NCBI GenBank assembly: GCA_049975205.1
Contig: JBNGDL010000002.1
Location: 132,498 to 196,497 of the forward strand
Source: Anaerolineae bacterium
GTDB taxonomy: Bacteria > Chloroflexota > Anaerolineae > B4-G1 > SLSP01
Direction: 5' to 3'
DNA length: 64,000 nt
Under the pieces are notes generated by a model that was not told the DNA's origin, ran no database searches, and saw nothing but the letters and a program-made list of their open reading frames with translations. Shown here one piece after another: positions 3,006 to 22,101 of this stretch (position 1 is its first letter; each line of letters begins with the position of its first letter). A program made the translations under genes and the position numbers.

Positions 3006-3421
3006 AATGGAGCGCCACGCCGCCGTCGGAGGCGGTCATCCTAATCGTCGAGGATAACCTCAACAACTTCATCTTGATGACGAGGCTACTTGCTTTCCTG
3101 GGGGTCAAGAAATGCGAATGGAAGGCCTCGGGTTGGAAAGTCCTGGAGTTTGCCGAAACGCTGGGCAAAATCGATCTGATCTTGATGGACATTGCCCTTC
3201 CGGATGCTGATGGCTATGAGTCGCTGAAATCCTTACGGTCCGACGAGCGGTTTCAGGACGTGCCGATCGTAGCCGTGACGGCTAACGCTTCTGTTGAGAA
3301 CTTCCAGCGCGCCAAGAGAGAGGGTTTCGACGGGTTTATTGGCAAGCCCCTCGATCCGGAGCGCTTTCCAAACCAGGTGAGAAGAATCCTGGGGGGTGAG
3401 GAGGTATGGGAGCGGGTCTAG
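3002..3421 (+). CDS. Single-domain response regulator (CheY-like receiver), RR2
   Basis: ATGA start/stop overlap with RR1 (3002-3005). Receiver motifs are 'ILIVEDN', 'DLILMDIALPDADG', 'IVAVTA' and 'FIGKPL'. It is 139 aa with no output domain. Confidence 0.85.
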   Translation: MKWSATPPSEAVILIVEDNLNNFILMTRLLAFLGVKKCEWKASGWKVLEFAETLGKIDLILMDIALPDADGYESLKSLRSDERFQDVPIVAVTANASVENFQRAKREGFDGFIGKPLDPERFPNQVRRILGGEEVWERV

Positions 3422-5836: not shown

Positions 5837-7840
5837 ATGTCTAAGGAGAGGATCAGCAGCGCCGTTACAGACGCTGTGACGGGATCGCGCAGGATGGCTG
5901 GGGATCCTGGGTACCTATCCAGCGACCAACTGCGCCGGATCCTGAGGATCGCCGCGCTCATTGTGCTGCCGCTGTGGGGACTGGTTGTGCTAGATCTTTA
6001 CGGCACGCCTCAGTCGTGGCTCATCACCCTCGCTGGCGGTGCGTTTGCCCTGCTCGTGATCGGGGCTTTCCTACCTTTACCTCGCACGCTCCGAGCCTGG
6101 ACGTTGCCCGTCGCGCTCTTCCTTCTGGGCAGTGTAGATCTGCTCGTCTATGGATGGACCGGAAGCGGTCGGGTGATATGGCTAGCAGCCGCCGCGGCGA
6201 CTGGCATCCTACTGAATGGGCGGTCGGGAGCTATTATCCTCGCTGCGGTCAGCCTGTTGCTGTTGGGCTATGTGGTGGTCTCCGGGGTGGGGCAGCTAGT
6301 ACCTGTGACACAGAGCCCTCAGCCACCGTTGATGATGCTCATCGCAGGGTGGGGCATCTTTGGTCTCTCTGGTGCGGCACTCATCGTGCTCCTGTGTCAG
6401 CTAGTAGCTGGGTTGCAGGGAGCGTTAGCGTTCGTTGAAGACGAGGCCCAACTTGCAGCCGCCGAACGCGACGAGAAGATAGCGCAGGCAACCGAACTGG
6501 AGGCGTCTGTAGAGGCTCTTGAGCGGAGGAACGCCCAACTGGAGGCGAGCCTTTCTGTGACCCGGCTGTTCTCGATCGTATTTGACCCCGAGGGACTGCT
6601 CAATCGGGCTTCGGAGCTTATCTCGGACCACTTTGGATTCGATCATGTAGCGATATATCTGATGAATGAGACCGGCGAATGGGCAGTGCTCCGGGCAGCC
6701 TCGTCGGTGCCAGGGAAGGAGCTCGTGCTCAAGGAGCAGCGAGTGCGGAGGGGAGAGGAGACGCGCGTGGGCTGGGTTGCCGAGCACCGGCAGCCGCGTC
6801 AGGAGGGTGTGTGCGAGCAGGTGCCGGCCTCGCTTGCTGTCGGCGATTTTCCTGGAAGCTGCTCGTTCCTCGCGCTTCCTTTGGTCGTCAATGGGCAGCT
6901 GCTGGGGATTCTTGATCTTCAGAGCAGTGACGAAAGCGCCTTTTTGGAGAGCGAAACGGAGGTGTTTGCACGGCTGGGGGAGCACCTGGCTCTCGCGATC
7001 AACAACGCGCAGCGCCTGGCTGACGAGGTCGTCCTTCTCGAGAAAGCCGATCCGTTCTATGCGATGACCAACCAACTGGCGACGGCGCGCTCGGAAGCGG
7101 AAGTCTATCAGATCATCCTTAACCCCCTTGTCGACTATAACCCCTCGCGGATTCTCGTGGTTCGTTCGTTTGACGACTCCAGAGATCTGTATGTGGTGGT
7201 CGATAGGGAGGCAGGGGTACCACCGGATGCGCTGGATGACGCACTGGTGTTTCCGGAGAAAGAGTTGGTCGATCTGCAGCCCTCCGGATTGGTCGATCTG
7301 GCGATCATCGGAACGGCTCTTGACGCGCCATTGTGGGCGGAGAACCTGTGGGATCTGGACTCCGAGCTCAGCCCCGAGCTTCGGATGGCCCTAGAGAGCC
7401 TTGCAGAGAGCAGCTCGGTTGGCGGGCTCTCCTTCATCCCCATCCGTTCGGAGCCGGGGTTTGAAGGTGGCGGTGACACCTCTACTGGTGGCAACACCCT
7501 TGGTGGCATCATTGTGCTCTACGGTACCGTGCATCGGTTTATGCCAATGGAGCGTCAGCTTCATAGACTCCTCACGGAGCTAGCTGGACCCGCTATAGAG
7601 CGCAGTCGGCTCCTTGCCGATGCACAAACACGGTTGGAGCAGGAACAACTGCTCTTTTCGATCGGTCAGCGACTTCGTGCCTCCTTCGACCCTGACGCGA
7701 TCCTGCGCACCACCCTAGAGGAACTTGGGACCCTGTTGGACGCTGAGTTGGCGGTGATTGAGATCAAGCCGGAGTTCGGTGAGCCGGAGGCCGGCTCAGG
7801 CGATGGGGCCGAGTCAGGCGAGCGCCTGGCAAGTGGGTGA
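5837..7840 (+). CDS. Polytopic (about 6 TM) membrane protein with coiled coil and 2 GAF-like domains, no output domain, protein B
   Basis: About six hydrophobic helices lie in aa 40-195. The coiled coil is 'EASVEALERRNAQLEAS'. The canonical GAF reads 'FGFDHVAIYLMNETGEWAVLRAASS...LALPLVVNGQLLGILDLQSSDESAF...LALAINNAQRL'. A second degenerate GAF contains 'LGGIIVLYGTVHRF'. It ends with the shared tail 'LLFSIGQRLRASFDPDAILRTTLEELGTLLDAELAVIEI'. No H-box or ATPase boxes are present. Confidence 0.7.
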   Translation: MSKERISSAVTDAVTGSRRMAGDPGYLSSDQLRRILRIAALIVLPLWGLVVLDLYGTPQSWLITLAGGAFALLVIGAFLPLPRTLRAWTLPVALFLLGSVDLLVYGWTGSGRVIWLAAAAATGILLNGRSGAIILAAVSLLLLGYVVVSGVGQLVPVTQSPQPPLMMLIAGWGIFGLSGAALIVLLCQLVAGLQGALAFVEDEAQLAAAERDEKIAQATELEASVEALERRNAQLEASLSVTRLFSIVFDPEGLLNRASELISDHFGFDHVAIYLMNETGEWAVLRAASSVPGKELVLKEQRVRRGEETRVGWVAEHRQPRQEGVCEQVPASLAVGDFPGSCSFLALPLVVNGQLLGILDLQSSDESAFLESETEVFARLGEHLALAINNAQRLADEVVLLEKADPFYAMTNQLATARSEAEVYQIILNPLVDYNPSRILVVRSFDDSRDLYVVVDREAGVPPDALDDALVFPEKELVDLQPSGLVDLAIIGTALDAPLWAENLWDLDSELSPELRMALESLAESSSVGGLSFIPIRSEPGFEGGGDTSTGGNTLGGIIVLYGTVHRFMPMERQLHRLLTELAGPAIERSRLLADAQTRLEQEQLLFSIGQRLRASFDPDAILRTTLEELGTLLDAELAVIEIKPEFGEPEAGSGDGAESGERLASG

Positions 7841-7846
7841 GGTGGC

Positions 7847-10705
7847 ATGCCATCGTTGCTGGTGTTGAGAATCGTACTGGTTGCCGGGGCATTTGTTGCC
7901 GGTGCTGGTGGCTTGCTGTTCGTGGCCAGACGACGGAAGCGCGAAGCTGCTGACATCTTGAGGACGGTACCCGATTCGATTCGACGGCGCCTCGGGCTCC
8001 ACATTGCGTTGATCGTATTGATACCCGTTGTGCTGATCGCAGGTGCTTCGCTGCTTCTCGGGATCCGTGCGAGCGAGCACCGTCTCTTGACGGCTCTGGA
8101 GGCCGCCGCAGAGATGCGCGTCGGCCACATTGAGACCTGGCGGGATGAGCTCCGGCTCGATGTGGCCATGCTGCACGGATTGGAGCTCGATAACCTCCAG
8201 GCACTTCTTTCCTCGCCCCGGGCATCGCAGGAGTTCGAGGACGCTTATGCTGTTGAAAGCCAACGGCTTCTCACTGCGCTCGAACCGCAGGGCAAGCTCG
8301 ACGTCATTGTCCTCGCGGATGCGCAGGGCGAGGTTGTCTTGTCCACAGCCTCATCGGACGAGCAGCCCGACATCAGCAAGGCAGCATTCTTCCCCGCAGG
8401 ATTGGAGAGTCCGTACGTGGGAGCCGTGACCCACTCTATCCTACTGGACGCACCCGCGATCACGGTCGCCATGCCGGTACCAGGCACTGACGGCTCGTTG
8501 GGCATCCTGGTAGGTCAGGCGACGTTAACCCATATTCGGGCGGAGCTCGCGGACCGGGCAGACCTGATCGAGACAGGCGAAGCATACGTCCTTGACGGGG
8601 AGGGGCGGTTCTTGGCGGGCGCGCTAGCCGACTCGATGTCTGCCTTGACCGTGGTCTCTTCCGAGGGCGTCGACAGCCTGCTGAGCTCCCGGCGTGATAC
8701 GAGCGGTCGCTACACCAACTACCGCGACGAGCCTGTGCTGGGCGTCTACCGTTGGCTCCCAGATCTTGAGTTGGCTGTGGTCGTCGAAGCGGAGCGCAAC
8801 GAGATCGTTTCGATGGCCCTACCAACGACGGGCTACACGTTGGCAATAGCCGTGGTCTCCCTGGCGCTGGCCCTCCTCGGAGGCGCTCTTGTCGCCGATG
8901 CCGTGTCGCGTCCGATTTCTGAAATGGCTGAAGCGGCGACCCGGTTTGCTCAAGGCGACCTGACTGCGACCATACCGATAGAGCGGCAGGATGAGCTTGG
9001 GCAGATGGCACTCGCGATCAATGAGATGGCGGAGCGTCTCCGTGAGACGGTGAGCGACCTGGAGGCACGTGTGGCTGACCGCACAGCTGACCTCGAACGT
9101 CGGTCGACGCGACTGCAGACGGCGGCGGGCATCGCCAGACAAGCGGCTTCGATCCGGGAGGTAGATGAACTGCTTCGCGTCGTTGCCGATCAGGTTGTGG
9201 AGCGGCTCGGCTTCTACCATGTGGGCGTATACTTGCTGGATTCTGCGCGTCGTCTGGCGGTCCTCCGGGCTTCAGCGGGTGCTGCCGGTGAGCAGCTCTT
9301 GACGCGGGGTTTCCAAGTTGCGATGGACGAGGAGGTTGTGGGGATGGGGAGGGCCATTGCCGCCGCGGCGTCCTCCGGGCGAGCAGCCATTGTTTCGGAC
9401 GTCCTGGTCGACGAGCGGTACTTAGCTGCGGCTGAGCTTCCCGAGACGCTCTCCGAGATGAGTCTGCCGATCAGGGTGCGCGATGAGATCGTTGGTGTCC
9501 TAGATCTACAATCGGATAGCCCGGGGGTCTTCTCCGAAGATGATGTGACCTATCTCCAGACTTTGGGAGACCAGATCGGCCTGGCCGTCGAGAATGCGTG
9601 GCTCTTAGCAGAGACTACGGAACGATTGCGGGAGACAGAGCGATTGGTTCAGGCGCAGCGACGCGAGGGGTGGTGGCAAATGGCGTCAGAGCGCCCGGTT
9701 TGGTCATATGTCTACGATGGCGTAGAGGTCATGTCTGTTGATGAGGCAGCGGCATCGTGGCTCAGTTCGACATCGTCCGAGGATGCTCCAGATGTCGTCC
9801 TACCGATTGGAGAGCGCGGAGATGAAGTTGGCTCTGTGAAGCTCAGACTGCGAGGACGCGATGGGTTGTCGCGCGACCAGATGCAGCTGGCCAGGGCCAT
9901 CATCGGGGAAGCAGGTAGCGCGCTGGAGCGCGCACGGCTCTTCGGCACGACGCAAGCGGCGCTGCAGGAAGCGAGCATTCTGTATCACTGCAGCCGCGCG
10001 ATGATGGGTGCAAACAGTGAACGAGAGGTGGTGTCCGTCATCGCAGATCACGTGGCAACGTCTGATATCGACCGCGTGATACTACTGGCGCGGGAGACCC
10101 TCGTTGACGCCGCACAGCCGACGGTAAGGGTCGTCGCGACCTGGAGCCAGGCTGAGGAAGGCTCCGTCCCGATCGGTCAGCGTTGGCCCCTGGACCGCGT
10201 CCCAGCGGTGGCTGGTGCGACCTCGGGATGCCGAGCGGTGAACGACGTTGCGGCGTCGGAGGTACTGGACTCAGTCTCGCGGGACGTGCTCCTTGAGGAT
10301 ATAGGGGTCAGGAGCGCGTTGATCCTGCCGCTTTCCTTGAATGGAGAGACCTTAAGGTGGTTGATCCTAGGCACCAGTTCTGTCCCCCACACCTTCCGCG
10401 ATTCTGAGATGCGGCTCTACCGCGGACTCGCCGATCAGGCCGCTATCGTGATTCGCAACTTCCAGCTGCTCGAGTTGGCGACTAAGAGAGCCGAGCGCGA
10501 GCGTCGAATCGCTGAGGCCGGCGCCCGCATTCGGCGTTCTACTGATATCCAGACGATACTGCAGACGTCTGTGAGCGAACTGGCCCGTGTTCTGGGGGCC
10601 CGCGAGGGCTCGATTCGTCTACATTCGGACGGCGACCAAGATGGGCCGGTTGATCGGCAGGATGAGCCCACTTCTCTGGAGGCTGGGGCTGATTCCAATG
10701 AATGA
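7847..10705 (+). CDS. Transmembrane double-Cache-like/HAMP sensor with ~3 GAF-like domains, no output domain, protein C
   Basis: TM1 is at the N-terminus. A ~300-aa periplasmic region has Cache-like strings ('VIVLADAQGEVVLSTA', 'YVLDGEGRFLAGA', 'YRDEPVLGVYRWLPDLELAVVVEAE'). TM2 follows, then HAMP ('RPISEMAEAATRFAQGDLTATIP..DELGQMALAINEMAERL') and the S-helix 'LEARVADRTADLERRSTRLQTAA'. The canonical GAF contains 'LGFYHVGVYLLD...LPETLSEMSLPI..IVGVLDLQSDSPGVF'. A W/Y.Y mini-GAF and a third GAF follow, then the shared tail. Confidence 0.75.
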   Translation: MPSLLVLRIVLVAGAFVAGAGGLLFVARRRKREAADILRTVPDSIRRRLGLHIALIVLIPVVLIAGASLLLGIRASEHRLLTALEAAAEMRVGHIETWRDELRLDVAMLHGLELDNLQALLSSPRASQEFEDAYAVESQRLLTALEPQGKLDVIVLADAQGEVVLSTASSDEQPDISKAAFFPAGLESPYVGAVTHSILLDAPAITVAMPVPGTDGSLGILVGQATLTHIRAELADRADLIETGEAYVLDGEGRFLAGALADSMSALTVVSSEGVDSLLSSRRDTSGRYTNYRDEPVLGVYRWLPDLELAVVVEAERNEIVSMALPTTGYTLAIAVVSLALALLGGALVADAVSRPISEMAEAATRFAQGDLTATIPIERQDELGQMALAINEMAERLRETVSDLEARVADRTADLERRSTRLQTAAGIARQAASIREVDELLRVVADQVVERLGFYHVGVYLLDSARRLAVLRASAGAAGEQLLTRGFQVAMDEEVVGMGRAIAAAASSGRAAIVSDVLVDERYLAAAELPETLSEMSLPIRVRDEIVGVLDLQSDSPGVFSEDDVTYLQTLGDQIGLAVENAWLLAETTERLRETERLVQAQRREGWWQMASERPVWSYVYDGVEVMSVDEAAASWLSSTSSEDAPDVVLPIGERGDEVGSVKLRLRGRDGLSRDQMQLARAIIGEAGSALERARLFGTTQAALQEASILYHCSRAMMGANSEREVVSVIADHVATSDIDRVILLARETLVDAAQPTVRVVATWSQAEEGSVPIGQRWPLDRVPAVAGATSGCRAVNDVAASEVLDSVSRDVLLEDIGVRSALILPLSLNGETLRWLILGTSSVPHTFRDSEMRLYRGLADQAAIVIRNFQLLELATKRAERERRIAEAGARIRRSTDIQTILQTSVSELARVLGAREGSIRLHSDGDQDGPVDRQDEPTSLEAGADSNE

Positions 10706-10774
10706 CCCACGGAGATCTGTCAGGATGACCGGTAGCGGCAGGCGCTACGCTTCATCCAGAGAGGGCTGCTTGCG

Positions 10775-12958
10775 ATGATGCCGTGGCGGAGGAGCCTGGC
10801 GTTTCGAGCGCTGCTGGTTCTTGGCGGGTTCTCGCTCTTGGCCCTGAGTGTCGTGGGGGTGGGTGGGTATCTTCTGGGACGCCGGCTGTTGGAAGATGCG
10901 GTGGCGTCCGAAGTCACTCTCGTGGCGCAGTCAAGGGCGGATGAGATCGGTCGATGGTTAGATACCCAAGAGGCCCAACTCCTGACGATCACAGAGGCCC
11001 CATCCGTGCAGACCTGGACGCAGGTCATCAGCACGACCGATGTATCATCCCCAGACTCCCAAGTGGCCTCTGAGGAGCTATCTGCGCACTTGACCACGCT
11101 GGTGGGTCGGCTGCCCGGAATACGCCAGCTGTCTGTGCTGAGCAGCCCTGAGGGACTCGTCTTAGCATCAACGAATCAGGAACTTGAGGGCACGACTATG
11201 GCCACCGATAGGGCCTACACCGAGGGATTGGCGGGGCTCTATCGGAGCAAAGCCTCGGTGGTGCCAACAACGGGGGCGATCATGATGACTATGTCGGCGC
11301 CCCTCAGGAATGCGGCGGGGGACCTTCTTGGGGTCGTCATCATGGGCCTCGACCTAGATTCGATGCAACACTCGATCCTCGACCGTGTTGGACTTCGGAG
11401 TGGATGGGAGCTTTATCTCGTCGACAGCGATGAGCTGCGGGTTGTCGGCCCGAGCACAGCCCCGGGGCTCGGACTGGAGCTGTGGCCTGAGGCGGTCAGT
11501 CTGATTCGCGGAGAGGACGGGGGCACGGGCGTTTACCGGAATCACCAGGACGAGTTGGTCATCGGTACATATAAGGGGATCGAAGCGCTTGACGTGGTGC
11601 TGCTGATTGAAGCTGACTATGCAGCTGCGGTTGGAGACCAGCTTGAGAGACTCCGTCTGAGCATTGTCGGCGGCGGGTTCCTGGTCGTTGTCATTCTTGG
11701 TGTTGGGATCTATCTGTTGAGCCACCACGTTGCCGAGTCATTGGGAGATCTGAGTCGAAGACTCAGCGGTGTAATCGAAGGTGAGATGCGCCCCTTGCCG
11801 GTGCCGTATGCCCTGAGGGAGAACGAGATCGGAAAGGTGATGCGGGCCTACAATGCCATGGTCCGCCATCTTGGTCACCGTAGCGCCGAGATGGAGACGC
11901 AACTCGAGGAGGGCAGGGCCTCGCTGCGTCGACGGTCCCGACAACTTCAGGCAGCCACACGGATCTCCAGCGCCGTCTCAGCCATTCGGGACGTGTCGGC
12001 CCTCCTTGATGAGGCAGTAAGGCTGATACCCGAGACCTTTGACTACGACCACGCCGGCATTTTCCTGATTGATGAGGCGCGAGGGTATGCTCGGCTCCAG
12101 GCGGCGTCCTCGGAAGGGGGACAACGGATGCTGGCGCGCCAGCACGAGCTGCGTCTGGGTCAGGGCATCGTGGGGTCGGTTGCGCAGACCGGAGAGCCCA
12201 GGATCGCGTTGGATGTTGGTGAGGATCCTGTTTTCTTCGATAACCCTGACTTACCCTTGACCCGCTCTGAGATGGCAGTGCCGCTGACGGCTCGTGATCC
12301 GGCTGCTGGAACACGGTCCGTGATTGGGGTGCTTGACGTGCAGTCCAATCGCGCCGGAGCGTTTTCTTCTGAGGATGTTCTAGTGTTGCAGAGTATGGCA
12401 GATCAGGTCGCACTTGCGATCGAGAACGCGCGACTCCTCGAAGAGACCGACCAGGCGATGCGCGAACTCGAGCTACGGTATGGCGAGCGAGCGGCCCTGT
12501 CCTGGTCCCAGCGCTTGGGACGCGGTGGTCCTGGATACAGATATACCGGCGTCGCGGTGGTGCCGCTGGACACAGAGTCCTCTCAGCCTGCAACCAGGGT
12601 GGCCACGATTCGTGAGTGCGGAGATGGCCTTCGTGAACTATGCGCACCGATCCTCATCCGTGACCAGGTGCTGGGTTCAGTCGCGTTTCGGCAGCGGGTC
12701 GACGAGGAGCCGTGGGATGATGAGGATGTCGCTATGGTGAATGCACTCTGCAATCACATCGGTCAGGCCCTAGAACATGCGCGGCTGCTCAATGAAAGCC
12801 AATTTCGGGCACGGCGCGAGCGTCTGCTTGGTGATCTTGCTTCCCGGATGCGCGAGACACTGGACACAGATCTCATCTTGCAGACTGCTATTCGGGAGAT
12901 CGGACAGACGTTGGGTGTTTCGGATATTGAGGTTCGTATGCGCGGGAGCGACCGGTGA
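10775..12958 (+). CDS. Transmembrane double-Cache-like/HAMP sensor with GAF + mini-GAF, no output domain, protein D
   Basis: TM1 is 'LLVLGGFSLLALSVVGVGGYLL'. The Cache-like periplasmic region contains 'LVLASTNQELEG', 'YLVDSDELRVVGP' and 'HQDELVIGTYKGIEALDVVLLIEAD'. TM2 and a HAMP-like segment follow. The canonical GAF contains 'FDYDHAGIFLIDEARGYARLQAASSEGGQRMLARQHELRLGQGIVG..PDLPLTRSEMAVPL..VIGVLDVQSNRAGAF'. The mini-GAF contains 'WSQRLGRGGPGYRYTG'. The tail is 'LASRMRETLDTDLILQTAIREIGQTLGVSDIEVRM'. Confidence 0.75.
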   Translation: MMPWRRSLAFRALLVLGGFSLLALSVVGVGGYLLGRRLLEDAVASEVTLVAQSRADEIGRWLDTQEAQLLTITEAPSVQTWTQVISTTDVSSPDSQVASEELSAHLTTLVGRLPGIRQLSVLSSPEGLVLASTNQELEGTTMATDRAYTEGLAGLYRSKASVVPTTGAIMMTMSAPLRNAAGDLLGVVIMGLDLDSMQHSILDRVGLRSGWELYLVDSDELRVVGPSTAPGLGLELWPEAVSLIRGEDGGTGVYRNHQDELVIGTYKGIEALDVVLLIEADYAAAVGDQLERLRLSIVGGGFLVVVILGVGIYLLSHHVAESLGDLSRRLSGVIEGEMRPLPVPYALRENEIGKVMRAYNAMVRHLGHRSAEMETQLEEGRASLRRRSRQLQAATRISSAVSAIRDVSALLDEAVRLIPETFDYDHAGIFLIDEARGYARLQAASSEGGQRMLARQHELRLGQGIVGSVAQTGEPRIALDVGEDPVFFDNPDLPLTRSEMAVPLTARDPAAGTRSVIGVLDVQSNRAGAFSSEDVLVLQSMADQVALAIENARLLEETDQAMRELELRYGERAALSWSQRLGRGGPGYRYTGVAVVPLDTESSQPATRVATIRECGDGLRELCAPILIRDQVLGSVAFRQRVDEEPWDDEDVAMVNALCNHIGQALEHARLLNESQFRARRERLLGDLASRMRETLDTDLILQTAIREIGQTLGVSDIEVRMRGSDR

Positions 12959-13046
12959 TGGTCGAAGTTCAACCGTTTAGGCGGACGATCTTCTCGGAGA
13001 TTGAGGACGCCGTGACTGGTGTGGACCCGAGACGGGAGGATGTGCT

Positions 13047-14756: not shown

Positions 14757-16507
14757 ACGAGCGCGGGCGTCGTCGCTTGGATGGTGTGCGCCAAGCCTGG
14801 CATCGCCTTGTGACGGTCAACGGCTCCGCCGCGACTCACCTCGATGCGGAGAAGGTTCGCAAGGCTGTGCTGCTCAACACCCTGATCGTCGGGGGCTTTG
14901 GTGTGGCGGTGGGCATTACGGTGGCCATTGCGGTCGCTAGCCGTCTTGGGTATCTTGCTTTCTGGGAACAGACTGCGGGGTTCCTGTTTTTCCCCTTCAT
15001 ACTCTTGGCTATCTCGGCTCTAGCCATCACGATGGCCAAGCGCGGGGAAATTGACCGCGCGGCGTGGCTCTACGTATGGGTGACCTTTGTGACAGTTGTC
15101 GCTGCGGCGATCTTGCTAGATGGATACCGTTCGGCGGGTTGGCTGCTGGTGATCTGGCCCGTGGTTCTGGCTGGGACGTTGCTACGGGCCTGGGTAGGCT
15201 TGCTTTCTGCGTTTGGCGCTGTGGCGATCTATGGGGCCGTTGCTGCGGCTCAGGCGGCCGGCGTGTATACGCCAGTCGTGACCACGCCGGCAGGGGGCTT
15301 CCTCTTCTTCGGGCTGTTTTTCGGCTGGTTGATGATCGTGATAGCTGCGGGGCTGGTGACCTACGTCAATGGGACGAGCCTGCATCGCGCTTTGGCCGGG
15401 CTCAGTGAGGCCTCGCGCGACCTGGAGCTCGCCCGTCGGGCGTTGTCAGAAGACATCGCTGTCCAGTCACGGGAGCTGAGAGAGAGAGCCGGGCAATTCC
15501 GGGCGATCGCTGAGCTAGGGCAGGCGACGGCATCCGTGCGCGATGTGGATGAGCTCATGAGCACAGCCGTGAATCTGATCTCTCAGCGGCTGGGTTTCTA
15601 CCACGCAGGCATCTTCCTCTTGGACGCGCCGCGAGAATGGGCTGTCTTGCGTGCTGCGTCCTCTGAGGGCGGCCGGCGCATGCTTGCGCGGCGCCACCGT
15701 CTGCGTGTTGGTGAAGAGGGCATCGTGGGGTACGTGGCCGAGATGGGAATCTCGCGGATCGCATTGGACGTCGACGATGACACTGTATGGGTCAGCAGTC
15801 CGGATCTGCCCGAGACGAAATCGGAGATGGCTCTTCCCTTGATCTCAGGGGATCAGGTGTTGGGGGTTCTGGACATCCAGACGACCGCGGTTGCTGCGTT
15901 CGACGAGGACGATATCGATGTGCTGCAGGTCCTGGCGGATAGTCTCGCTACAGCCATTGCTAATGCTGAGCTGCTAGAAGAAACCCGTGCGGCCATGAGG
16001 CGGCTGGAGCGGTATCAGGAGACCGACGCGGTTCAGGCGTGGCGTCGAGCGTTAGCCCGACGAAACCTGCGTGTTGGGTATAGCTATGTTTCGGGGGAGA
16101 CGACATCATCGCGTCCCGACGAGATAGATCCCGAGGGGACCTGGAAGGGGCTCGTCGGCGTCACCCGTCAAACAACAGAAAGCGGTGAGCACACGTTGCT
16201 GGCGCCGATCACCGTTGGAGGGCGTCGTCTAGGAATGCTGTCCTTCGAGCGGAGCGCGCCCTGGAGCGATGAGGCTGTCCAGCTTGTTGAGGCTGTTCTC
16301 GACCAGCTCGACCTGGCGCTGGATAACGCGCGCCTTCTGGAGGAGACACAACGGACCGCCAGTCAGGAGGCTGCACGTAGCCAGATCGTGGGCAGGATCC
16401 GGGCTTTGACCAGCACCGATGCAATTCTGCGCAGTGCGGCGGAGCAGTTGGGTAAGGCGCTTCACGTCGAACGTAGCCGCATTCAGCTGGTGCAATTCGA
16501 TGACTGA
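14753..16507 (+). CDS. Polytopic (about 6 TM) membrane protein with coiled coil, GAF + mini-GAF, no output domain, protein F
   Basis: ATGA overlap with protein E, and RBS GGGGAGGAG upstream. There are about six hydrophobic helices. The canonical GAF contains 'LGFYHAGIFLLDAPREWAVLRAASSEGGRRMLARRHRLRVGEEGIVG..PDLPETKSEMALPL..VLGVLDIQTTAVAAF'. The mini-GAF contains 'WRRALARRNLRVGYSYVSG'. The tail is 'IVGRIRALTSTDAILRSAAEQLGKALHVERSRIQL'. Confidence 0.75.
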   Translation: MNERGRRRLDGVRQAWHRLVTVNGSAATHLDAEKVRKAVLLNTLIVGGFGVAVGITVAIAVASRLGYLAFWEQTAGFLFFPFILLAISALAITMAKRGEIDRAAWLYVWVTFVTVVAAAILLDGYRSAGWLLVIWPVVLAGTLLRAWVGLLSAFGAVAIYGAVAAAQAAGVYTPVVTTPAGGFLFFGLFFGWLMIVIAAGLVTYVNGTSLHRALAGLSEASRDLELARRALSEDIAVQSRELRERAGQFRAIAELGQATASVRDVDELMSTAVNLISQRLGFYHAGIFLLDAPREWAVLRAASSEGGRRMLARRHRLRVGEEGIVGYVAEMGISRIALDVDDDTVWVSSPDLPETKSEMALPLISGDQVLGVLDIQTTAVAAFDEDDIDVLQVLADSLATAIANAELLEETRAAMRRLERYQETDAVQAWRRALARRNLRVGYSYVSGETTSSRPDEIDPEGTWKGLVGVTRQTTESGEHTLLAPITVGGRRLGMLSFERSAPWSDEAVQLVEAVLDQLDLALDNARLLEETQRTASQEAARSQIVGRIRALTSTDAILRSAAEQLGKALHVERSRIQLVQFDD

Positions 16508-17624
16508 CCTGCGAGATTGGGTGAGGAGGCGCCACGGTCATCGACTGTTGGCTATCTTGGCGATGGTCCTCTGCATTGCCTCGTGCGCATCCGGGCCCAC
16601 GCCACGCCCAGGTGCGCCGACTGGGCGTGCGGACGACGGAGATCGTGGGCCACTGCGGGTGTTTTGGGTGAACAGTTACACGTCGGACGATCGATGGGCC
16701 CTCAGGATCCGTACAGGTATTCTCGAAGCTCTTGCTCGATCGGGGTACAGCGTGGCGGACGACACGCTCTCGTGGGGAACTTACCATCTTGAGGCGTCCG
16801 GTATCGGCGATAGCGCCGAGAGCATGCGGCGCCTGAACGAAGTCACAGAGGTCATAAGGATTCTCCAGCCGGAGATCGTCATCGTGTCAGATGACGAGGC
16901 ATTTCAGTTGATGATGCCGACGTACAGCGACCCCGAGGTCCGATTTGTCTACTGCGGTGTGGGGGCGACGGCGGAGTCGATGTCGTCGTTGCCCGACAAT
17001 GTGTTTGGGGTCCGAGAGCCGGTGCCCGCTGTTGAGACTCTGTCCATGGGTCGGTCGTTGACGGGGGACGAAGGGCGATACCTTCTGATCGGCGACGGCT
17101 CGATTACGGGACAGATCGTGACAGCTAGGGCCTATAACGAACTGGCGCGTGAGGCGTCTGATGGCGCCACACCATTCCTGGGTGTGGCGGGCTCTTGGGA
17201 GGAGTGGACGACCCTGGTGCAGAGCCGGTCGGGGGAGGTGGATTTCATCATTGTCACGAGCTACCAACCGCTTATAGATGCACAAGGGGAAGTCGTGACT
17301 GGGCAAGCGATGATGGCATGGATGCTCTCGAATGTGTCGGTTCCTGTCTTTTCGCTCTCGGAGACCTTAGTGATAGATGGGGCTGTGGGCGGACTTGTCT
17401 CCGATGCGTACAAGCAGGGACAGGCCGCCGGCCAGATCGCGGCCCGGTTGGCGCAGCACGGCGGCGTTGAGGCCGATTCGCCTTTAGTGGGGAGCGGCAG
17501 CCGATTGGTACTTAACGCAGCTGCGGCCCGTCACTGGGGCTTGCGCATTCCGGCGTTGTTTCCCATTGCGGCTGAGGTCTATCTCAGTCTGCCTGTCGGG
17601 TATGGAGGACAGCCTGATGCGTGA
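16500..17624 (+). CDS. Solute-binding lipoprotein (ABC-type substrate-binding-like fold, no transporter partner nearby), protein G
   Basis: I place the start at ATG 16500, overlapping the stop of protein F by 8 nt; the listed 16419 start runs inside F. The signal peptide has a lipobox ('RRRHGHRLLAILAMVLCIAS-C-ASG'). The alternating beta/alpha periplasmic-binding-protein style sequence includes 'LRVFWVNSY', 'IVIVSDDEAFQLM', 'FVYCGV' and 'DFIIVTSY', reminiscent of the ABC_sub_bind family. The family assignment comes from memory only. Confidence 0.6.
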   Translation: MTDLRDWVRRRHGHRLLAILAMVLCIASCASGPTPRPGAPTGRADDGDRGPLRVFWVNSYTSDDRWALRIRTGILEALARSGYSVADDTLSWGTYHLEASGIGDSAESMRRLNEVTEVIRILQPEIVIVSDDEAFQLMMPTYSDPEVRFVYCGVGATAESMSSLPDNVFGVREPVPAVETLSMGRSLTGDEGRYLLIGDGSITGQIVTARAYNELAREASDGATPFLGVAGSWEEWTTLVQSRSGEVDFIIVTSYQPLIDAQGEVVTGQAMMAWMLSNVSVPVFSLSETLVIDGAVGGLVSDAYKQGQAAGQIAARLAQHGGVEADSPLVGSGSRLVLNAAAARHWGLRIPALFPIAAEVYLSLPVGYGGQPDA

Positions 17625-20600
17625 AGCTGAGGTACGAAGGCGAGGTCTGAGCCTCCGCTGGCGCGTCATCCTGATCGTCGCGGGGATTTCGCTGCTATTG
17701 GTCACGCCTGTGATGCTCTTTGTGGGCCGGCGCTACCAGAATGCCTATCGTGAGGCTTACTGGAGTAAGGGCGATCTGGCTACTATTCAACTGCGCCAGA
17801 CGATCCGCGCTATTTCGCCCTTTGTGGAGACGGTGGGTGACGCTCCTGGCTTAGCAGCTTATTTACAGGACATCGGCGCTAACGTCAGCGACTTCGATTT
17901 CATCGCCTTGGTCGACGGCAACGGACGCGTGCTGATGCATTCGATTCCTGGCTACGAGGGCCGCACGCTCGGTGAGCTGCGAGATCTGGCGGCGGGCGCG
18001 ACTGAGCGAGGTCCGTCTGACGACCCCTATTCGGTTGTCCGGCGAGAGTTGCCCTTTGGCTTGACGTATCTCATCTGGCGCTCCATGCCGATGCCTGGCA
18101 ATGACCAAGACGAGCTCTACATTGTTGTGGGCGAGCGAGCGGCTCTGGTCGATCCTCCAATCTATCCACTGATTGCGATTGGGTTGCTTGCAGCCGTCCT
18201 TCTGGTCGTGCTCATCCGTATTTCCTTGGATCGCCTCGTGATCACGCCCCTGAACCTGCTGGCGGAAGGGGCAGCGATCGTTGGCGCTGGGGAGCTCAGT
18301 CATAAGATTCCGCTGGATCGTGATGACGAGTTTGGCTTTGTCGCACAGGCATTCAACGAGATGGCTGGGCGACTGGAAGAGATCGTGACCCGCCTCGAGC
18401 AGACCGTGACCGAGCGCACGGCAGCCCTCCAACGCCGTAATGCACAGCTCGAGGCTGCGAGCCTTGTTGGACAGGAGGCCGCTCGGGAGCGCAATGTGAA
18501 CGCTATATTGGATACTGCTGTCCGTGCGATCTCTGATAATTTCGGCTTTTACCACACGGGCATTTTCATCGTCGATGATAACAAGGAGTGGGCGATCCTC
18601 AGATCGGCTTCCTCAGAGGGCGGCAGGCGGATGCTGGCCCGAAATCATCGCCTGCAGGTCGGACAAGTCGGCATCGTCGGGCACGTTGCAGCGTCCGGTA
18701 GACCTCGCGTTGCCCTCAACGTGGGCCAGGATGCTGTCTGGTTCAACAACCCGGATTTACCCATGACGAAGTCTGAGATGGCGCTGCCGTTGATCTCGGA
18801 GGGCGAGGTCATCGGTGTGCTGGACGTCCAAAGTCAACAGGTATCCGCCTTTGCGGACGAAGACATCAGTACGCTTCAATTGATGGCCGATCAGCTGACC
18901 GTGGCCCTGAATAACGCTCGGGCACTCGAGGTGACAGAATCCGCGCTCGCCGAGCTACGAGCGCTACAGGTAGACTTCGCGCGGAGTGGATGGGCCCGGA
19001 TCTCGAACCGAGCGCGGCCTGTTGCTTACGAATATGACCGGGTCGATACAGCGCCAGTGGCGCCGCTGGAGGTGCCAGCGGAGCTCGCAGAGGGCAAGGT
19101 CGAACATAGTCTTGTAACTGACGGCGGCGTGCCGATGGTTCTGGAGGAGCTGCGGGCAGGGAACCAGGTCCTGGGCTACCTTGGCCTGTCGGATTCGCGC
19201 CGCACTTGGTCAGAGGAGGAATTGGCCTTCATTCACAGCGTCGGGGAGCAAGTGGCACTCGCATTGGATAACGCGCGGTTGTTCGAAGACACACAGCGCA
19301 ACGAGCGACAGCAGTACCTAATTAGCCAGGTCCTGCAGGCAGCCTCAGCCCCCGGCCTCAGCAGCGATGAAGCCCTGGTGGAGATCGCTAGGGTCTTGGC
19401 TCACGGCCTAGATATGGCGGTTGCGATTCTGACTTTCGAGCAGCTGCAGGTGCCAGTGATCCAGGCGCACACCTTCGTCAGCCCAGAAGGAGAGCCGCTT
19501 CCCCTCTTCGTGGAAGGGTCTGGGCTCTCGTCAGAGCAATCCGCCTTCCTGCAAGGCCTTGTCGAGACTGACGGGGGATCCGTTGCGCCTCTCCTCGGTG
19601 TGACGGAGAGCCCGTCCGCCGCCGATCCAGACGCTCGCCGTACCTTGCGTGCCTACGATACCGAGCGCGTTCTCTACGTTCCGATCAGGCGGGCTAGTGG
19701 GCTGACCAGTGGCTGCATGAGCTTGGTTCAGTATCTCGATGCACCTCACTTTGACTCTGACACGCGGGAACTGATGGAGACCTTGGCGGGGCAAATCGCT
19801 GTAGTGCTGGAGAACCTGACGCTTTCCGAGGAGACCCGTCAGCGCTCGGAAGAGCTCCGCCAGCTCTATCGGATTTCGTTGAGGTTGGCCGAACTCCTGG
19901 AGCCAGACGACGTGCTGGATGAGTTGGTGAGCCAGGGGGCAGTATTGCTGAATGCCGATGGTGCCAATCTATGGGTCTACGATGCTAACGCAGAGATCCT
20001 TGCGTTGAGGTCTAGCAACGGGGGCGGTGCTGAAGGTGAGCTCGGCCGCCGCCTCCGATTGGGTCAGGGGCTAGCGGGCATGGCGTTGGCGCAGCAGCAG
20101 ACCGTCCGTGTCGATGATTACGCGTCTTGGCAAGACCGCATTCCTGATCTCGTGAGTCCAACCTTACACGCGACGATGGCGATCCCGCTGGTGGGCCGAT
20201 TCGGGCCTCTTGGTGTTCTGGTGCTGCTGTCTCGTCAGATCGGTTTCTTTGGCGAGCGAGAGGCAGGCCTTGGGGAGCTCTTCGCTGCTCAGGGTGCGGC
20301 AGCCTTGGAGAACGCCCGCCTCAACCAGGACGCTCAGCGGCGGGCGGAGGAGTTCTCTCAGCTTTACGAGGCCGGCACCGACCTGATCACAATTCTGGAC
20401 TTGGAGGAGTTGCTGGACCGTGCTGCAGACTGGGCGCGGCGTATCTTCGCTGCGGAGCGAGTTGTGGTCACAGTTCGGGATCCAGAGTCGGGCGCCTTTA
20501 TCAGGGGACAGTGTGCCAGTGTGCCAGAGTATCTAGTAAGCCAGGGAGCCGATCAGGCGGCAACCGATGGACTCGTTGAGCGGTTGATGGTGTCGCGGGA

Positions 20601-22101
20601 GAGCCTGCTGGTCCCCGACGCTCGCGAGACTGCTGCACCCGACGCCGCGGAGCTTCCCCGGACGGACATGCTATCCCAGATGGGTGCGTCATTGCAGGTG
20701 GGCGACGAAGTGTTGGGTGCCATCCTCGTCAACGGGGCAGCGATCGAGCAGTTCACGCGTCGGGATCTGGATCTGCTGGAATTCCTGGCTACTCAGGTTG
20801 CATCGGCGCTCCAGAACTCCATCCAGTTTAGACAAACTGAAGAGGCCCTTTCTGTCGTGGGGCAACAGGCTCGCTACCAGACCAACATCTCGCAGGCCGT
20901 GGCACTCTTGAACGAGCGCGGCACGGATGCGACGGGTGATGTTCTCCGGCTGCTCGGCGAGGCGGCCGAGGTGCCAACTGTCCTCTACTTCGAGTCGAGG
21001 GTGAACGGAGACGGGAGCTACTGGTGTCTGCAAGCGCAGTGGGCCGCGCCCGGCCGTGCTCCTGACCGCCTCCAGGATCAGCGATTCCAGCGCTTGTCGA
21101 CCTCCGAGACTGACCCATGGGTGCGCTCGTTGAGGCAGCAGGGATACGTCATGGGTAAGCTGCGACACCTGCCAGGAGCTAAGGATGATGGCATCGTAGC
21201 ATCGGGGTCTGGCGCCGTTCTCGGGCTCGCGGTCCCCGGCGAGACGCGAATCCCGGCATTTGTCGCGCTGCTTAGAGACGACGCCGTGCTGTGGGAGGAT
21301 CAGGAAATCGTGGCGCTGCAGACGGCGGCGGCCGCGCTGTCAAACACGCTGGCCCGTGAGAGGCTTTTCGCGCAGGTCCAGCAGACCCTTAGCGAGACAG
21401 AAGCCCTCTATCGAGGAAGCGCTGCGTTAACCCAGGCTAGTGCTTATCAGGACATTCTGGATGTCCTGCTGGCGCACACGATCTTGGGAGAAGAACCGCA
21501 CATGTCGACCCTTCACCTCTTCGACCAGATGTGGAGCGGTGAGGAGCTGCCTACATACTCGGAGGTCGTGGCCTCTTGGAGCCGCGAGCCCCAGGCTGAG
21601 TTGCGGCGCAGATATGAGGTCCGTAAGTACGCCGACTCGCTTCGTGCGATGGAGGATGGGGCACCGGTGTTCGTAGAAGACCTTGAGCGAGACGCGATGC
21701 CGGATCGGAGATTGCACGCGCTCTTTGAGAGAGCTATGGGGGCCCAGAGTGTGGTCCTCGTGCCGCTAGTGGTCAGTGGGCAGAAGATTGGGTTTCTGCA
21801 CGCCGACTACCCGACGCCGCGCACTTTCCCCGAATCGGCACGGCGTCGTCTGGTAAGCCTTGCGCAGCAGGCCGCGATTGCGGCCCTCAACATCCGGCAA
21901 CTACGGGCCAGTGAAGCCCGCGCACGTCGCGAGCAGCTCATTCGGCAGATCAGCAGTCATATCCAGGAAGCACCCGACGTGCAAGGCGTGTTGGAGACGG
22001 CTGTCCGAGAGCTTGGACGAGCTTTCGGCACGTCTCACAATCGCATCCAGTTCCGACCGCCCAGCGGGGCTGGAGGGAGTCCGGGGGATGGCGATGCATA
22101 G
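17617..22101 (+). CDS. Transmembrane sensor (small periplasmic domain-HAMP-S-helix) with ~7 GAF-like domains, no output domain, protein H
   Basis: I place the start at ATG 17617. GGAGGA sits 7 nt upstream and the start overlaps the stop of protein G by 8 nt. Two TM segments flank a ~150-aa outside region. HAMP is 'TPLNLLAEGAAIVGAGELSHKIP..DEFGFVAQAFNEMAGRL' and the S-helix is 'LEQTVTERTAALQRRNAQLEAAS'. The canonical GAF contains 'FGFYHTGIFIVDDNKEWAILRSASSEGGRRMLARNHRLQVGQVGIVG..PDLPMTKSEMALPL..VIGVLDVQSQQVSAF'. The mini-GAF contains 'WARISNRARPVAYEYD'. Five further GAF-like repeats follow. The tail is 'ISSHIQEAPDVQGVLETAVRELGRAFGTSHNRIQF'. No H-box or ATPase boxes are present. Confidence 0.75.
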   Translation: MREAEVRRRGLSLRWRVILIVAGISLLLVTPVMLFVGRRYQNAYREAYWSKGDLATIQLRQTIRAISPFVETVGDAPGLAAYLQDIGANVSDFDFIALVDGNGRVLMHSIPGYEGRTLGELRDLAAGATERGPSDDPYSVVRRELPFGLTYLIWRSMPMPGNDQDELYIVVGERAALVDPPIYPLIAIGLLAAVLLVVLIRISLDRLVITPLNLLAEGAAIVGAGELSHKIPLDRDDEFGFVAQAFNEMAGRLEEIVTRLEQTVTERTAALQRRNAQLEAASLVGQEAARERNVNAILDTAVRAISDNFGFYHTGIFIVDDNKEWAILRSASSEGGRRMLARNHRLQVGQVGIVGHVAASGRPRVALNVGQDAVWFNNPDLPMTKSEMALPLISEGEVIGVLDVQSQQVSAFADEDISTLQLMADQLTVALNNARALEVTESALAELRALQVDFARSGWARISNRARPVAYEYDRVDTAPVAPLEVPAELAEGKVEHSLVTDGGVPMVLEELRAGNQVLGYLGLSDSRRTWSEEELAFIHSVGEQVALALDNARLFEDTQRNERQQYLISQVLQAASAPGLSSDEALVEIARVLAHGLDMAVAILTFEQLQVPVIQAHTFVSPEGEPLPLFVEGSGLSSEQSAFLQGLVETDGGSVAPLLGVTESPSAADPDARRTLRAYDTERVLYVPIRRASGLTSGCMSLVQYLDAPHFDSDTRELMETLAGQIAVVLENLTLSEETRQRSEELRQLYRISLRLAELLEPDDVLDELVSQGAVLLNADGANLWVYDANAEILALRSSNGGGAEGELGRRLRLGQGLAGMALAQQQTVRVDDYASWQDRIPDLVSPTLHATMAIPLVGRFGPLGVLVLLSRQIGFFGEREAGLGELFAAQGAAALENARLNQDAQRRAEEFSQLYEAGTDLITILDLEELLDRAADWARRIFAAERVVVTVRDPESGAFIRGQCASVPEYLVSQGADQAATDGLVERLMVSRESLLVPDARETAAPDAAELPRTDMLSQMGASLQVGDEVLGAILVNGAAIEQFTRRDLDLLEFLATQVASALQNSIQFRQTEEALSVVGQQARYQTNISQAVALLNERGTDATGDVLRLLGEAAEVPTVLYFESRVNGDGSYWCLQAQWAAPGRAPDRLQDQRFQRLSTSETDPWVRSLRQQGYVMGKLRHLPGAKDDGIVASGSGAVLGLAVPGETRIPAFVALLRDDAVLWEDQEIVALQTAAAALSNTLARERLFAQVQQTLSETEALYRGSAALTQASAYQDILDVLLAHTILGEEPHMSTLHLFDQMWSGEELPTYSEVVASWSREPQAELRRRYEVRKYADSLRAMEDGAPVFVEDLERDAMPDRRLHALFERAMGAQSVVLVPLVVSGQKIGFLHADYPTPRTFPESARRRLVSLAQQAAIAALNIRQLRASEARARREQLIRQISSHIQEAPDVQGVLETAVRELGRAFGTSHNRIQFRPPSGAGGSPGDGDA

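Follow-up and report, generated by a model that had tools for sequence, protein, structure and literature searches.

Our analysis shows that six neighbouring proteins encoded in a 64,000-nucleotide stretch of an Anaerolineae genome (the window), here called sensors B, C, D, E, F and H, belong as functional members to a large family of transmembrane sensors without kinases, found in Anaerolineae (Chloroflexota). They share one plan: a variable input, a conserved heptad or signalling helix (S-helix) joined to a GAF domain (GAF1), usually a small degenerate GAF (mini-GAF), and a terminal stub amounting to a quarter of a GAF. We propose that they are interchangeable input subunits, each without a kinase, that modulate the kinases of their operon by direct contact, a reading that we hold with about even confidence.

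The operon spans about 26 kb of the + strand and runs from two REC genes and kinase A, through the six sensors and a further gene, G, to hybrid kinase I. The first-pass annotation of this DNA had drawn it too short, overlooking gene G and the two REC genes upstream of kinase A. The genes are:

RR1, 2571..3005, + strand: opens the operon; single-domain response regulator with REC alone (Pfam Response_reg, 99 bits)
RR2, 3002..3421, + strand: second single-domain response regulator (Pfam Response_reg, 72 bits)
Kinase A, 3406..5787, + strand: two TM segments, HAMP, S-helix (ERT), GAF, HisKA, HATPase_c (Pfam, TM segments)
Sensor B, 5837..7840, + strand: about six TM segments, divergent GAF1, degenerate second GAF, terminal tail; 667 aa
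Sensor C, 7847..10705, + strand: TM, dCache, TM, HAMP, S-helix (ERT), GAF1, mini-GAF (SYVYD), extra GAF, tail; 952 aa
Sensor D, 10775..12958, + strand: TM, dCache, TM, linker, GAF1, mini-GAF (GYRYTG), tail; 727 aa
Sensor E, 13047..14756, + strand: six TM segments, S-helix (ERT), GAF1, mini-GAF (GYRYTD), tail; 569 aa
Sensor F, 14753..16507, + strand: about six TM segments, GAF1, mini-GAF (GYSYVS), tail; 584 aa
G, 16419..17624, + strand: membrane-anchored periplasmic solute-binding protein, ABC_sub_bind/TrpX-like (weak Pfam and NCBIfam matches)
Sensor H, 17566..22101, + strand: two TM segments, HAMP, S-helix (ERT), GAF1, mini-GAF (AYEYD), about five further GAFs, tail; 1511 aa
Kinase I, 22171..28755, + strand: soluble hybrid kinase without TM segments: PAS, sensor-like GAF units, more GAFs, HisKA, HATPase_c, REC, REC (Pfam)

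All six sensor frames are intact at the lengths first assigned to them, sensor H having 1494 aa when read from the ATG at 17617. RR1 likely starts at the ATG at 2625, and G likely starts at 16500, where it overlaps the stop codon of sensor F. The RR2 ORF overlaps both the RR1 stop codon and the kinase A start codon, the sensor E stop and sensor F start overlap by 4 nt, and the intergenic gaps at the sensors range from –4 to 88 nt, larger ORF overlaps arising only with the longest possible starts. The operon contains no conventional output gene. Promoter and terminator scans of the operon gave counts not above chance, though a promoter-like hexamer pair at 2473–2544, upstream of RR1, is suggestive.

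Pfam finds HisKA and HATPase_c in both flanking kinases, A and I, as first reported. The accompanying claim, that the six sensors carry no kinase, cyclase or other output, held in Pfam, in NCBIfam, in PDB sequence searches and in Foldseek comparisons of two AlphaFold models. Pfam recognizes only GAF/GAF_2/GAF_3, HAMP (C and H) and dCache_1 (C and D) in them, with no HisKA, HATPase_c, GGDEF, cyclase or HTH match, and a sequence pattern scan found no H-box in B–H. GAF profiles (PF01590/PF13185/PF13492) match all six at 48–224 bits against cut-offs of 22–29; HAMP (PF00672) scores 57.8 bits in C and 47.6 bits in H and gave no match in the other four sensors. We rejected a cryptic catalytic or other domain after Pfam at E<=10 on C-terminal pieces, NCBIfam, PDB searches with the C-terminal regions of sensors B, C and H, and Foldseek with the two models returned only GAF, HAMP and Cache. 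Pfam matched neither the MCP signalling domain (PF00015) nor PAS_2 or PHY in the sensors, and the NCBIfam MCP matches are confined to the HAMP region of C and H. The NreA equivalog model reaches 20.5 bits against a cut-off of 175, in D and H only, so that these proteins are not members. The sensors are anchored by 5–6 hydrophobic segments in B, E and F and 2–3 in C, D and H, and their inputs consist of a polytopic membrane domain, a dCache or a periplasmic loop with HAMP. Input domains differ between sensors, whereas the cytoplasmic GAF unit is conserved.

The S-helix is a parallel coiled coil of about 40 residues with a central ERT signature, placed between two signalling domains (Anantharaman et al. 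2006, PMC1592074). It had been assigned to all six sensors; C (411), E (217) and H (283) carry the ERT/DRT signature, as does kinase A, but B, D and F have only a heptad helix without it. Every sequence string quoted in the first-pass annotation occurs in the protein named for it. The three-part transmitter unit described there (S-helix, GAF and a short second module) is incomplete, lacking the terminal GAF stub as a strongly conserved fourth part, and the second module, described as opening with a Trp and an aromatic triplet, does not extend to B, which has a longer degenerate GAF instead. In an NJ tree, the canonical units of C, D, E, F and H form a single group (mutual identity of the S-helix and GAF units 33–55%), but the unit of B (27–36% identity) falls outside, as does that of kinase A (24–32%). 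The sister of the sensor group is a set of kinase I GAFs (I_1, I_5, I_2). The first GAF of kinase I is 39–49% identical to GAF1 of these five sensors, and so as close to them as they are to each other, a similarity that shared ancestry alone could explain.

GAF1 has a set of nearly invariant polar residues (W276, R296, T334, E337, Q355, S356, Q371 and D375 in sensor E numbering), and its nearest structures and profiles are fRMsr, PtsP, the N-terminal GAF of NifA, and NreA. The full AlphaFold model of sensor E (pLDDT 87.7) has a long helix at 158–241, and its Foldseek matches are all GAFs, with target TM-scores of 0.77–0.88 against solved structures. Among 257 non-redundant relatives, the information content is 2.0–3.3 bits per column in GAF1, 0.6–1.7 in the mini-GAF core and 2.3–3.0 in the terminal tail.

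This tail, about 55 residues long and conserved on a par with the main GAF, ends all six sensors; elsewhere in proteins A–I, the tail HMM scores at most 14 bits. Its positions are:

Tail of B, 7607..7795, + strand: tail HMM 60.1 bits
Tail of C, 10463..10651, + strand: tail HMM 64.7 bits
Tail of D, 12779..12955, + strand: tail HMM 72.6 bits
Tail of E, 14559..14741, + strand: tail HMM 53.2 bits
Tail of F, 16328..16504, + strand: tail HMM 52.8 bits
Tail of H, 21901..22080, + strand: tail HMM 49.9 bits

Profile comparison identifies the tail as the opening quarter of one more GAF, comprising linker helix, alpha1 and beta1 and ended by the stop codon. Against the S-helix end, alpha1 and beta1 of GAF, hhalign gives a probability of 85% (E 6e-6), and the tail of sensor C matches Pfam GAF positions 1–33 and GAF_2 positions 1–35 and, when aligned with 8w26, falls in register with its GAF-to-PHY junction. 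A degenerate DHp, that is, a kinase hairpin without its histidine, was rejected on the same comparison, since hhalign gave 5% against the DHp of the local kinases. The AlphaFold model of sensor D residues 545–727 (pLDDT 81.5; partial GAF matches only in Foldseek) shows the tail as a long helix, a short helix and an unpaired end, and sensor E has tail helices at 485–530 and 534–548. In both monomer models, the last 12–20 residues, corresponding to beta1 of the stub, are unpaired coil. The mini-GAF has its own N-terminal beta hairpin in both models, so we also rejected a circularly permuted GAF made of the short second module and the terminal alpha1-beta1, a term that our literature search did not find in use. 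An extreme C-terminal tethering motif like that of chemoreceptors was rejected too, as the extension after the tail is G/E/D/P-rich without positional preference. The stub is the hallmark of the family and the most obvious candidate for an interaction element, although it may do no more than cap the helical bundle passively.

That the array is a unique oddity, as the first-pass annotation implied, is incorrect: the sensors belong to a widespread family whose members are annotated just as "GAF domain-containing protein". We counted as members the proteins that have the stub (consensus ARLYQETQRRAARERLISEITARMRETLDVETVLQTAVRELGQALGASEAEVRL) at most 60 residues before the stop codon and no kinase domain, a definition that includes all six sensors. 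Homologues number more than 2160 at E<=1e-10, and among the matches listed nearly all end in the same tail. The 78 GTDB loci collected are all from Chloroflexota MAGs, labelled mostly Anaerolineae or Anaerolineales. A first HMM pass gave 451 tail-bearing ORFs in all 82 loci, and stricter cut-offs gave 432 in 80 loci (median six per locus, all on the same strand). TM-like segments occur in 339 of 372 complete sensors, and the input domains of the relatives, located upstream of HAMP or the S-helix, include dCache, sCache and solute-binding domains. A search of 1.84 billion representatives with a six-sequence tail profile was unspecific as a census, matching each inter-GAF junction of giant multi-GAF kinases, and is useful only for the mutual exclusivity of tail and kinase: none of the 150 top representatives had a strong terminal tail and a kinase in one ORF. 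A local HisKA+HATPase HMM likewise matched no strong-tail ORF in the 82 loci, in which three weak internal tail matches in kinase-bearing ORFs are GAF junctions. Our literature search found nothing on a tail-bearing GAF sensor family.

The genes around these arrays recur as well. Where the ends are visible, the arrays have REC, REC and an A-type kinase upstream and a giant GAF hybrid kinase downstream, although some show no REC pair in the stretch of sequence covered; the same frame as in the window occurs in loci L001, L004–L007, L011, L014, L018, L043, L055, L071 and others. Of the 24 related loci with a visible boundary before the first tail protein, 14 have an A-type kinase as the gene immediately upstream of it, and a sensor B-like protein (33–37% identity) directly follows the A-type kinase in relatives also. 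The large REC-bearing kinases downstream mostly have no TM-like segment at the N-terminus and, at other loci as in the window, carry GAF1 and then a mini-GAF; in kinase I, which has no hydrophobic segment, a GAF at 513–687 is directly followed by a mini-GAF at 693–811. A BLAST comparison of H with kinase I, intended to place the truncation by colinearity, gave only repeated GAF-to-GAF matches. Some related arrays have a gene for a ParA/MinD-like ATPase inside them.

The first-pass suggestion that the sensors act as accessory co-sensors of the flanking kinases is consistent with this evidence, because the REC-REC-HK-[sensors]n-giant hybrid HK frame is conserved across the Anaerolineae, because kinase I shares the GAF unit of the sensors, and because the inputs vary while the cytoplasmic unit stays conserved. 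Since arrays of the family adjoin the same kinases, the sensors are probably plug-in units for them. Linkage in an operon is evidence of a shared function but not of physical contact. The likeliest mechanism is that each sensor would form a parallel dimer and relay its input along a continuous helical spine (TM/HAMP, S-helix, GAF alpha5 and stub), modulating the phosphorelay of the operon through direct protein contact. From sequence, the partner would be kinase A or kinase I; kinase I is the most likely target, having the same GAF unit and no membrane sensor of its own. Docking could involve a conserved GAF surface, the stub or both, and the kinases, together with the two single-domain response regulators, would carry the output.

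Two other readings are unlikely but deserve weight. The sensors could be scaffolds that bind response regulators, in the manner of the pseudo-kinase DivL, RR1 or RR2 (phosphorylated or not) docking on the stub or GAF1 and the sensor state setting the availability of the regulator instead of acting directly on a kinase. Such a role would suit the pair of stand-alone REC genes with which the operon begins, in the window as in no fewer than 12 related loci, and RR1 and RR2 are the most conserved operon proteins, as expected of hubs with many partners (76–81% and 81–83% identity to related loci against 53–59% for kinase A, the sensor complement varying). The stub, a helix-turn-helix after a long dimeric helix, also loosely resembles the helical hairpin on which kinases dock response regulators. 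However, its profile is that of a GAF start and not of the local kinases' DHp, and the REC pair is not seen at some related arrays. We give this reading a low probability, and we are no more inclined to the second, in which all the sensors receive or sequester the same small molecule, for example a metabolite or nucleotide messenger, in the GAF1 pocket, so that the cytoplasmic GAF is itself the input, and act independently of the kinases through the membrane domain or by sequestration. That GAF1, with its many nearly invariant polar residues, is the most conserved part favours a common ligand, as does the metabolite-binding nature of the GAFs nearest to it. Yet such a role leaves unexplained the strict operon linkage to kinases, the conserved stub and the diverse extracytoplasmic inputs (dCache, sCache, solute-binding) before HAMP or the S-helix, an arrangement that normally signals inward, and no ligand can be named from sequence.

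A bolder version of the input-subunit proposal, which we consider rather improbable, is that the sensors, the giant soluble multi-GAF hybrid kinase and the two response regulators make up a receptor-array-like supramolecular complex without CheA/CheW. Many different membrane receptors would feed into one cytoplasmic kinase, docking would work by a split domain in which alpha1-beta1 of the stub inserts into or pairs with a partner GAF, and a ParA/MinD-like ATPase from within the cluster would position the complex in some lineages.

That the sensors are decaying histidine kinase remnants, pseudogenes or functionless truncated paralogues is scarcely credible: the tail is a truncated domain and the architecture resembles a kinase minus its catalytic end, but the frames are intact as first noted, the gaps between them leave no space for a leftover kinase, sensor E has orthologues of equal length at 54–57% identity, the family has hundreds of members, tail conservation equals that of the main GAF, and 428 tail-bearing ORFs in related loci stop a median of 9 residues past the same motif (10 in a first pass). 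A cryptic enzyme like free methionine-R-sulfoxide reductase (fRMsr) has next to no likelihood and was rejected, because fRMsr chemistry needs catalytic cysteines and cysteine is absent from the S-helix and GAF1 units of all sensors but B, whose two are non-conserved; the best Foldseek match of the E model, fRMsr 3mmh (TM-score 0.84 on the target, rmsd 1.8 A), has just 22% sequence identity, and the likeness is one of fold only.

Among known systems, the clearest precedent for a GAF-only accessory sensor is NreA, which has a GAF fold and controls the two-component system NreBC (PMC8199190). Like the sensors, NreA, which modulates the kinase NreB in Staphylococcus carnosus, is a GAF without an output domain encoded beside its own two-component genes; unlike them, it consists of just one GAF, is small and soluble, and occurs once per system, whereas the sensors are membrane-anchored, have polytopic or extracytoplasmic inputs, at least two GAFs and the stub, and occur in six tandem copies. 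Chemoreceptors (MCPs, which signal to CheA) are likewise numerous output-less TM paralogues with variable periplasmic inputs (dCache, HAMP) and a conserved cytoplasmic module, and all of them feed their signals to a soluble kinase and to single-domain response regulators, as we propose for the sensors. The sensor module is GAF-based, however, its operon has no MCP signalling domain, CheA, CheW, CheR or CheB, and the sensors have no terminal pentapeptide-like motif. Some chemotaxis clusters do include a ParA/MinD-like ATPase gene. The RsbR paralogues of the stressosome combine variable N-terminal sensor domains with a conserved C-terminal assembly domain and act jointly on one kinase, but they are soluble, contain STAS domains and have a serine kinase as partner, and the operon in the window encodes no RsbR homologue. 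DivL (with CckA/DivK) and RetS (with GacS) do not signal by phosphotransfer of their own and bind another kinase or a single-domain response regulator; both retain DHp and CA domains, neither of which is found in the window sensors. In multi-GAF kinases and knotless phytochromes (SyB-Cph1, PDB 8w26; dual-sensor kinase 6oap), the sequence of GAF, long helix and start of the next domain is in register with the last GAF and tail of the sensors, but there the junction leads to a complete GAF or PHY and finally to a kinase, whereas the sensors end after beta1. In contrast to phytochromes and cyanobacteriochromes, GAF1 of the sensors has no conserved bilin-attaching cysteine.

Sediments, digesters and wastewater sludge contain abundant Anaerolineae, which are hard to culture and whose signalling is, to our knowledge, essentially unstudied. 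The analysis defines a class-wide, highly paralogous family, recognizable by its terminal quarter-GAF stub and its fixed operon frame, of which the 80 loci hold hundreds of members and metagenomes thousands. If the sensors are plug-in units for shared kinases, two-component signalling in the Anaerolineae would be many-to-one, as with chemoreceptors, the kinase and sensor repertoires of these genomes would have to be counted differently, and GAF-GAF hetero-association across separate polypeptides would become directly testable. The conserved truncated end also provides a clean case for studying the role of a deliberately incomplete domain. Should the receptor-array-like complex prove true, bacteria would have a third general way, in addition to chemoreceptor arrays and stressosomes, of integrating many sensory inputs into one.

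Finally, two loci encode the G-like domain in a gene of its own, upstream of one for a tail protein, and the domain is also matched in 17 other proteins of 748–841 aa (one cut at 557 aa), themselves tail proteins, and G is a probable ligand-binding partner of sensor H.

Six long ORFs on the forward strand between 5837 and 22101 encode the membrane sensors B, C, D, E, F and H (667, 952, 727, 569, 584 and 1511 aa by ORF calling, H having 1494 aa when started at the ATG at 17617). Adjoining ORFs are separated by –4 to 88 nt, larger overlaps arising only with the longest possible starts. Our data demonstrate that these sensors carry no output domain, as the first-pass annotation had proposed: Pfam, NCBIfam, PDB sequence and Foldseek matches were only to sensory domains (GAF, HAMP, dCache). 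Pfam matched every one of the six to GAF models; its only further matches were HAMP (C, H) and dCache_1 (C, D). NCBIfam gave no match near its cut-off, only partial ones to HAMP/GAF parts of kinases, NifA, PtsP and NreA, and a PDB sequence search with the C-terminal parts of B, C and H returned GAF regions and no other domain. By hydropathy, B, E and F each have 5–6 membrane segments, and C, D and H have two around a periplasmic loop, C with an extra N-terminal hydrophobic segment. The AlphaFold model of full-length E (60-sequence alignment, pLDDT 87.7) comprises six membrane helices, one long helix (158–241), a complete GAF (the main GAF), a five-stranded mini-GAF (421–475) and a C-terminus made of a long helix (485–530), a short helix (534–548) and a disordered end. 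Foldseek matched this model to GAF domains of the PDB exclusively (fRMsr, PtsP, PDE2/5, phytochromes). A model of D 545–727 (pLDDT 81.5) has the same layout, with partial, non-significant GAF matches. An fRMsr-like enzyme was considered and rejected, the likeness being in fold only, with zero cysteines in the main GAF of C, D, E, F and H.

The peptide strings quoted in the first-pass annotation were all located in the proteins as described. Its second module opening on a Trp and an aromatic triplet (the mini-GAF) holds except for B, which has none, and its signalling helix (S-helix) shows the canonical ERT signature (PMC1592074) in C, E and H and lacks it in the other three. In the neighbour-joining tree that the first-pass annotation had asked for, the S-helix+GAF units of C, D, E, F and H form one group, with 33–55% pairwise identity. 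The sister of this group consists of GAFs from kinase I, and the first GAF of I is 39–49% identical to the units of the five sensors; the units of B (27–36%) and of the membrane kinase A (24–32%) branch outside.

All six sensors share a C-terminal motif of ~55 residues, missed by the first-pass annotation, with the family consensus ARLYQETQRRAARERLISEITARMRETLDVETVLQTAVRELGQALGASEAEVRL followed by a short G/E/D/P-rich extension. A tail HMM scores 50–73 bits at the C-terminus of each sensor and at most 14 bits elsewhere in A–I, the weak matches being internal GAF junctions of H and I. In profile–profile comparison the tail aligns in register with the S-helix end, α1 and β1 of the main GAF (85% probability, E 6e-6); a kinase DHp was rejected, the probability with the kinases' DHp being 5%. 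Pfam matches the tail of C to GAF at model positions 1–33 and to GAF_2 at 1–35, and in the knotless phytochrome 8w26 the GAF, the long helix and the start of PHY line up colinearly with the last GAF plus tail of C. By these profile, Pfam and 8w26 alignments, the tail is the opening part of another GAF domain, so that the sensors end one strand into a further GAF. Among 257 non-redundant relatives, information per column is 2.3–3.0 bits in the tail, 2.0–3.3 in the main GAF and 0.6–1.7 in the mini-GAF core; strong selection acts on this stub. In the monomer models of E and D its two helices are confident and β1 is unpaired; β1 may pair within a dimer or to a partner, or else may be no strand at all.

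A protein search with E gave over 2160 matches at E ≤ 1e-10, of which those named are from MAGs of Anaerolineae, Anaerolineales and Thermoflexia and called just 'GAF domain-containing protein'; the tail closes nearly all of the 120 best matches, and orthologues of equal length reach 57% identity. For E (13047–14756), the closest public copy, on a 16-kb Logan contig, shares 99% identity. Identity falls to 55–56% for the best species representative in GTDB, a collection that therefore includes no genome closely representing the source organism. Scanning GTDB with one genome per species yielded 78 loci, without exception from Chloroflexota MAGs mostly labelled Anaerolineae or Anaerolineales. In all 82 loci ORFs were called, and local HMMs (tail, main GAF, HisKA+HATPase, REC) were used to map them. 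Tail-bearing ORFs numbered 451, with a median of 10 residues from tail to stop codon; a kinase shared the ORF in 3/451, where the tail matches are weak (24–27 bits) and lie at internal junctions. Stricter cut-offs left 432 tail ORFs in 80 loci (median 6 per locus, maximum 9, on a single strand). TM-like segments occur in 339/372 complete sensors. In one 1491-aa ORF (L038, 6767–11242) a strong tail motif (75.8 bits) lies 893 residues short of the C-terminus; loss of a stop codon or an error in assembly may have joined two sensors, or the fusion may be natural.

The sensors are flanked by kinases A (3406–5787) and I (22171–28755), both with HisKA and HATPase_c by Pfam. Pfam adds PAS and two REC domains in I, for which hydropathy gives no membrane segment. 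Two REC-only genes precede A:
2571–3005, RR1, single-domain response regulator gene overlapping RR2
3002–3421, RR2, single-domain response regulator gene overlapping RR1 and the start of A
In those related loci that show their upstream edge, the gene before the first sensor encodes an A-type membrane kinase (14 loci), a REC protein (4) or another GAF protein (5), and the A-type kinase usually has two REC-only genes ahead. Because the window has the same two genes before A, the operon reads REC-REC-A-B-C-D-E-F-G-H-I, ~26 kb. Downstream of the arrays lies a giant multi-GAF protein, a hybrid kinase in every case with its end inside the locus. N-terminal TM-like segments are mostly absent from these REC-bearing kinases, in several of which a mini-GAF comes immediately after a main GAF, the order of the sensors. 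An orthologue comparison against six related loci found the highest conservation in the REC proteins (64–83% where an orthologue is present, 76–83% in the nearest relatives), and A shows 44–59% identity (53–59% where the RECs reach 76–83%). The four nearest loci each contain an orthologue of E (54–57%), a B-like protein stays after A (30–37%), and C, D, F and H have no clear orthologues in the six loci. The frame of the operon is thus constant, and the sensor complement varies.

Inside the array, G (16419/16500–17624) encodes a membrane-anchored, ABC_sub_bind/TrpX-like solute-binding protein (Pfam, NCBIfam). Two loci have a homologue as a gene of its own, immediately before that of a ~970-aa sensor (L080, 7702–8802; L037, 16979–18070), and the domain lies within 17 other proteins of 748–841 aa (one cut at 557 aa) that are themselves tail-bearing sensors. 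From this occurrence as separate gene or inside sensors we infer a gene-fusion link between G and H, which makes G the probable ligand-binding partner of H. Some arrays have genes for additional periplasmic binding proteins (NMT1/THI5-like, ABC_sub_bind) immediately behind their last sensor:
L011, 19848–20858
L008, 10533–11537
L043, 16212–17264 and 17525–18550

The architecture, the conserved stub, the variable inputs, the operon frame and the GAF unit common to the sensors and the soluble kinase are established. Our best reading, to which we give an even chance, is that the sensors act by contact and feed the operon's phosphorelay. They would form dimers passing the signal along a helical spine and modulate the phosphorelay directly, most likely through the soluble kinase I, since it has no membrane input of its own; the docking element would be the conserved GAF surface or the stub. 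Two alternatives seem improbable, and equally so: that the single-domain response regulators dock on the sensors, or that a common small ligand binds the conserved GAF pocket with an effect independent of the kinases. That the six genes are pseudogenes, or that the sensors are a cryptic enzyme, is scarcely credible. For sensors acting by contact, MCP-CheA arrays, the RsbR paralogues of the stressosome, DivL and RetS offer precedents. Another is NreA, a GAF-fold regulator of NreBC (PMC8199190).

None of the sensor domains is new, and accessory sensors without a kinase are already known. New relative to the literature found are the definition of the family, which includes a terminal quarter-GAF stub, the scale of the family and its arrangement in tandem, and an operon frame conserved across a whole bacterial class; a full-text search, with most subscription journals outside its scope, found no description of the family.

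A gene for a ParA/MinD-like ATPase (AAA_31/CbiA) separates the last sensor from the hybrid kinase in a subset of related arrays; it has no counterpart in the window's operon and recalls ParA-like proteins positioning chemoreceptor clusters:
L058, 11114–11911
L050, 15056–15844
L026, 12260–13294
L003, 16370–17128
After the hybrid kinase, these arrays encode a PLP-dependent enzyme (PF00291) fused to a C-terminal REC, in one case with an N-terminal zinc-ribbon-like DUF7129, followed in L058 and L026 by an EamA transporter gene; in those lineages this may give the system a metabolic output:
L058, 15700–17409 and 17411–18358
L026, 18268–20124 and 20189–21100
L076, 19928–21610

The remainder of the window (29310–64000) is ordinary chromosome:
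30783–31844, reverse strand, queA
31877–33247, reverse strand, GH1 glycosidase
33473–34564, URO-D-like gene
34619–38218, reverse strand, 1199-aa ORF without Pfam match
38235–42932, reverse strand, PMT_2 glycosyltransferase, isoprenoid-type kinases and UbiA prenyltransferase
43434–47768, rpoC
55647–56687, small kinase-like ORF
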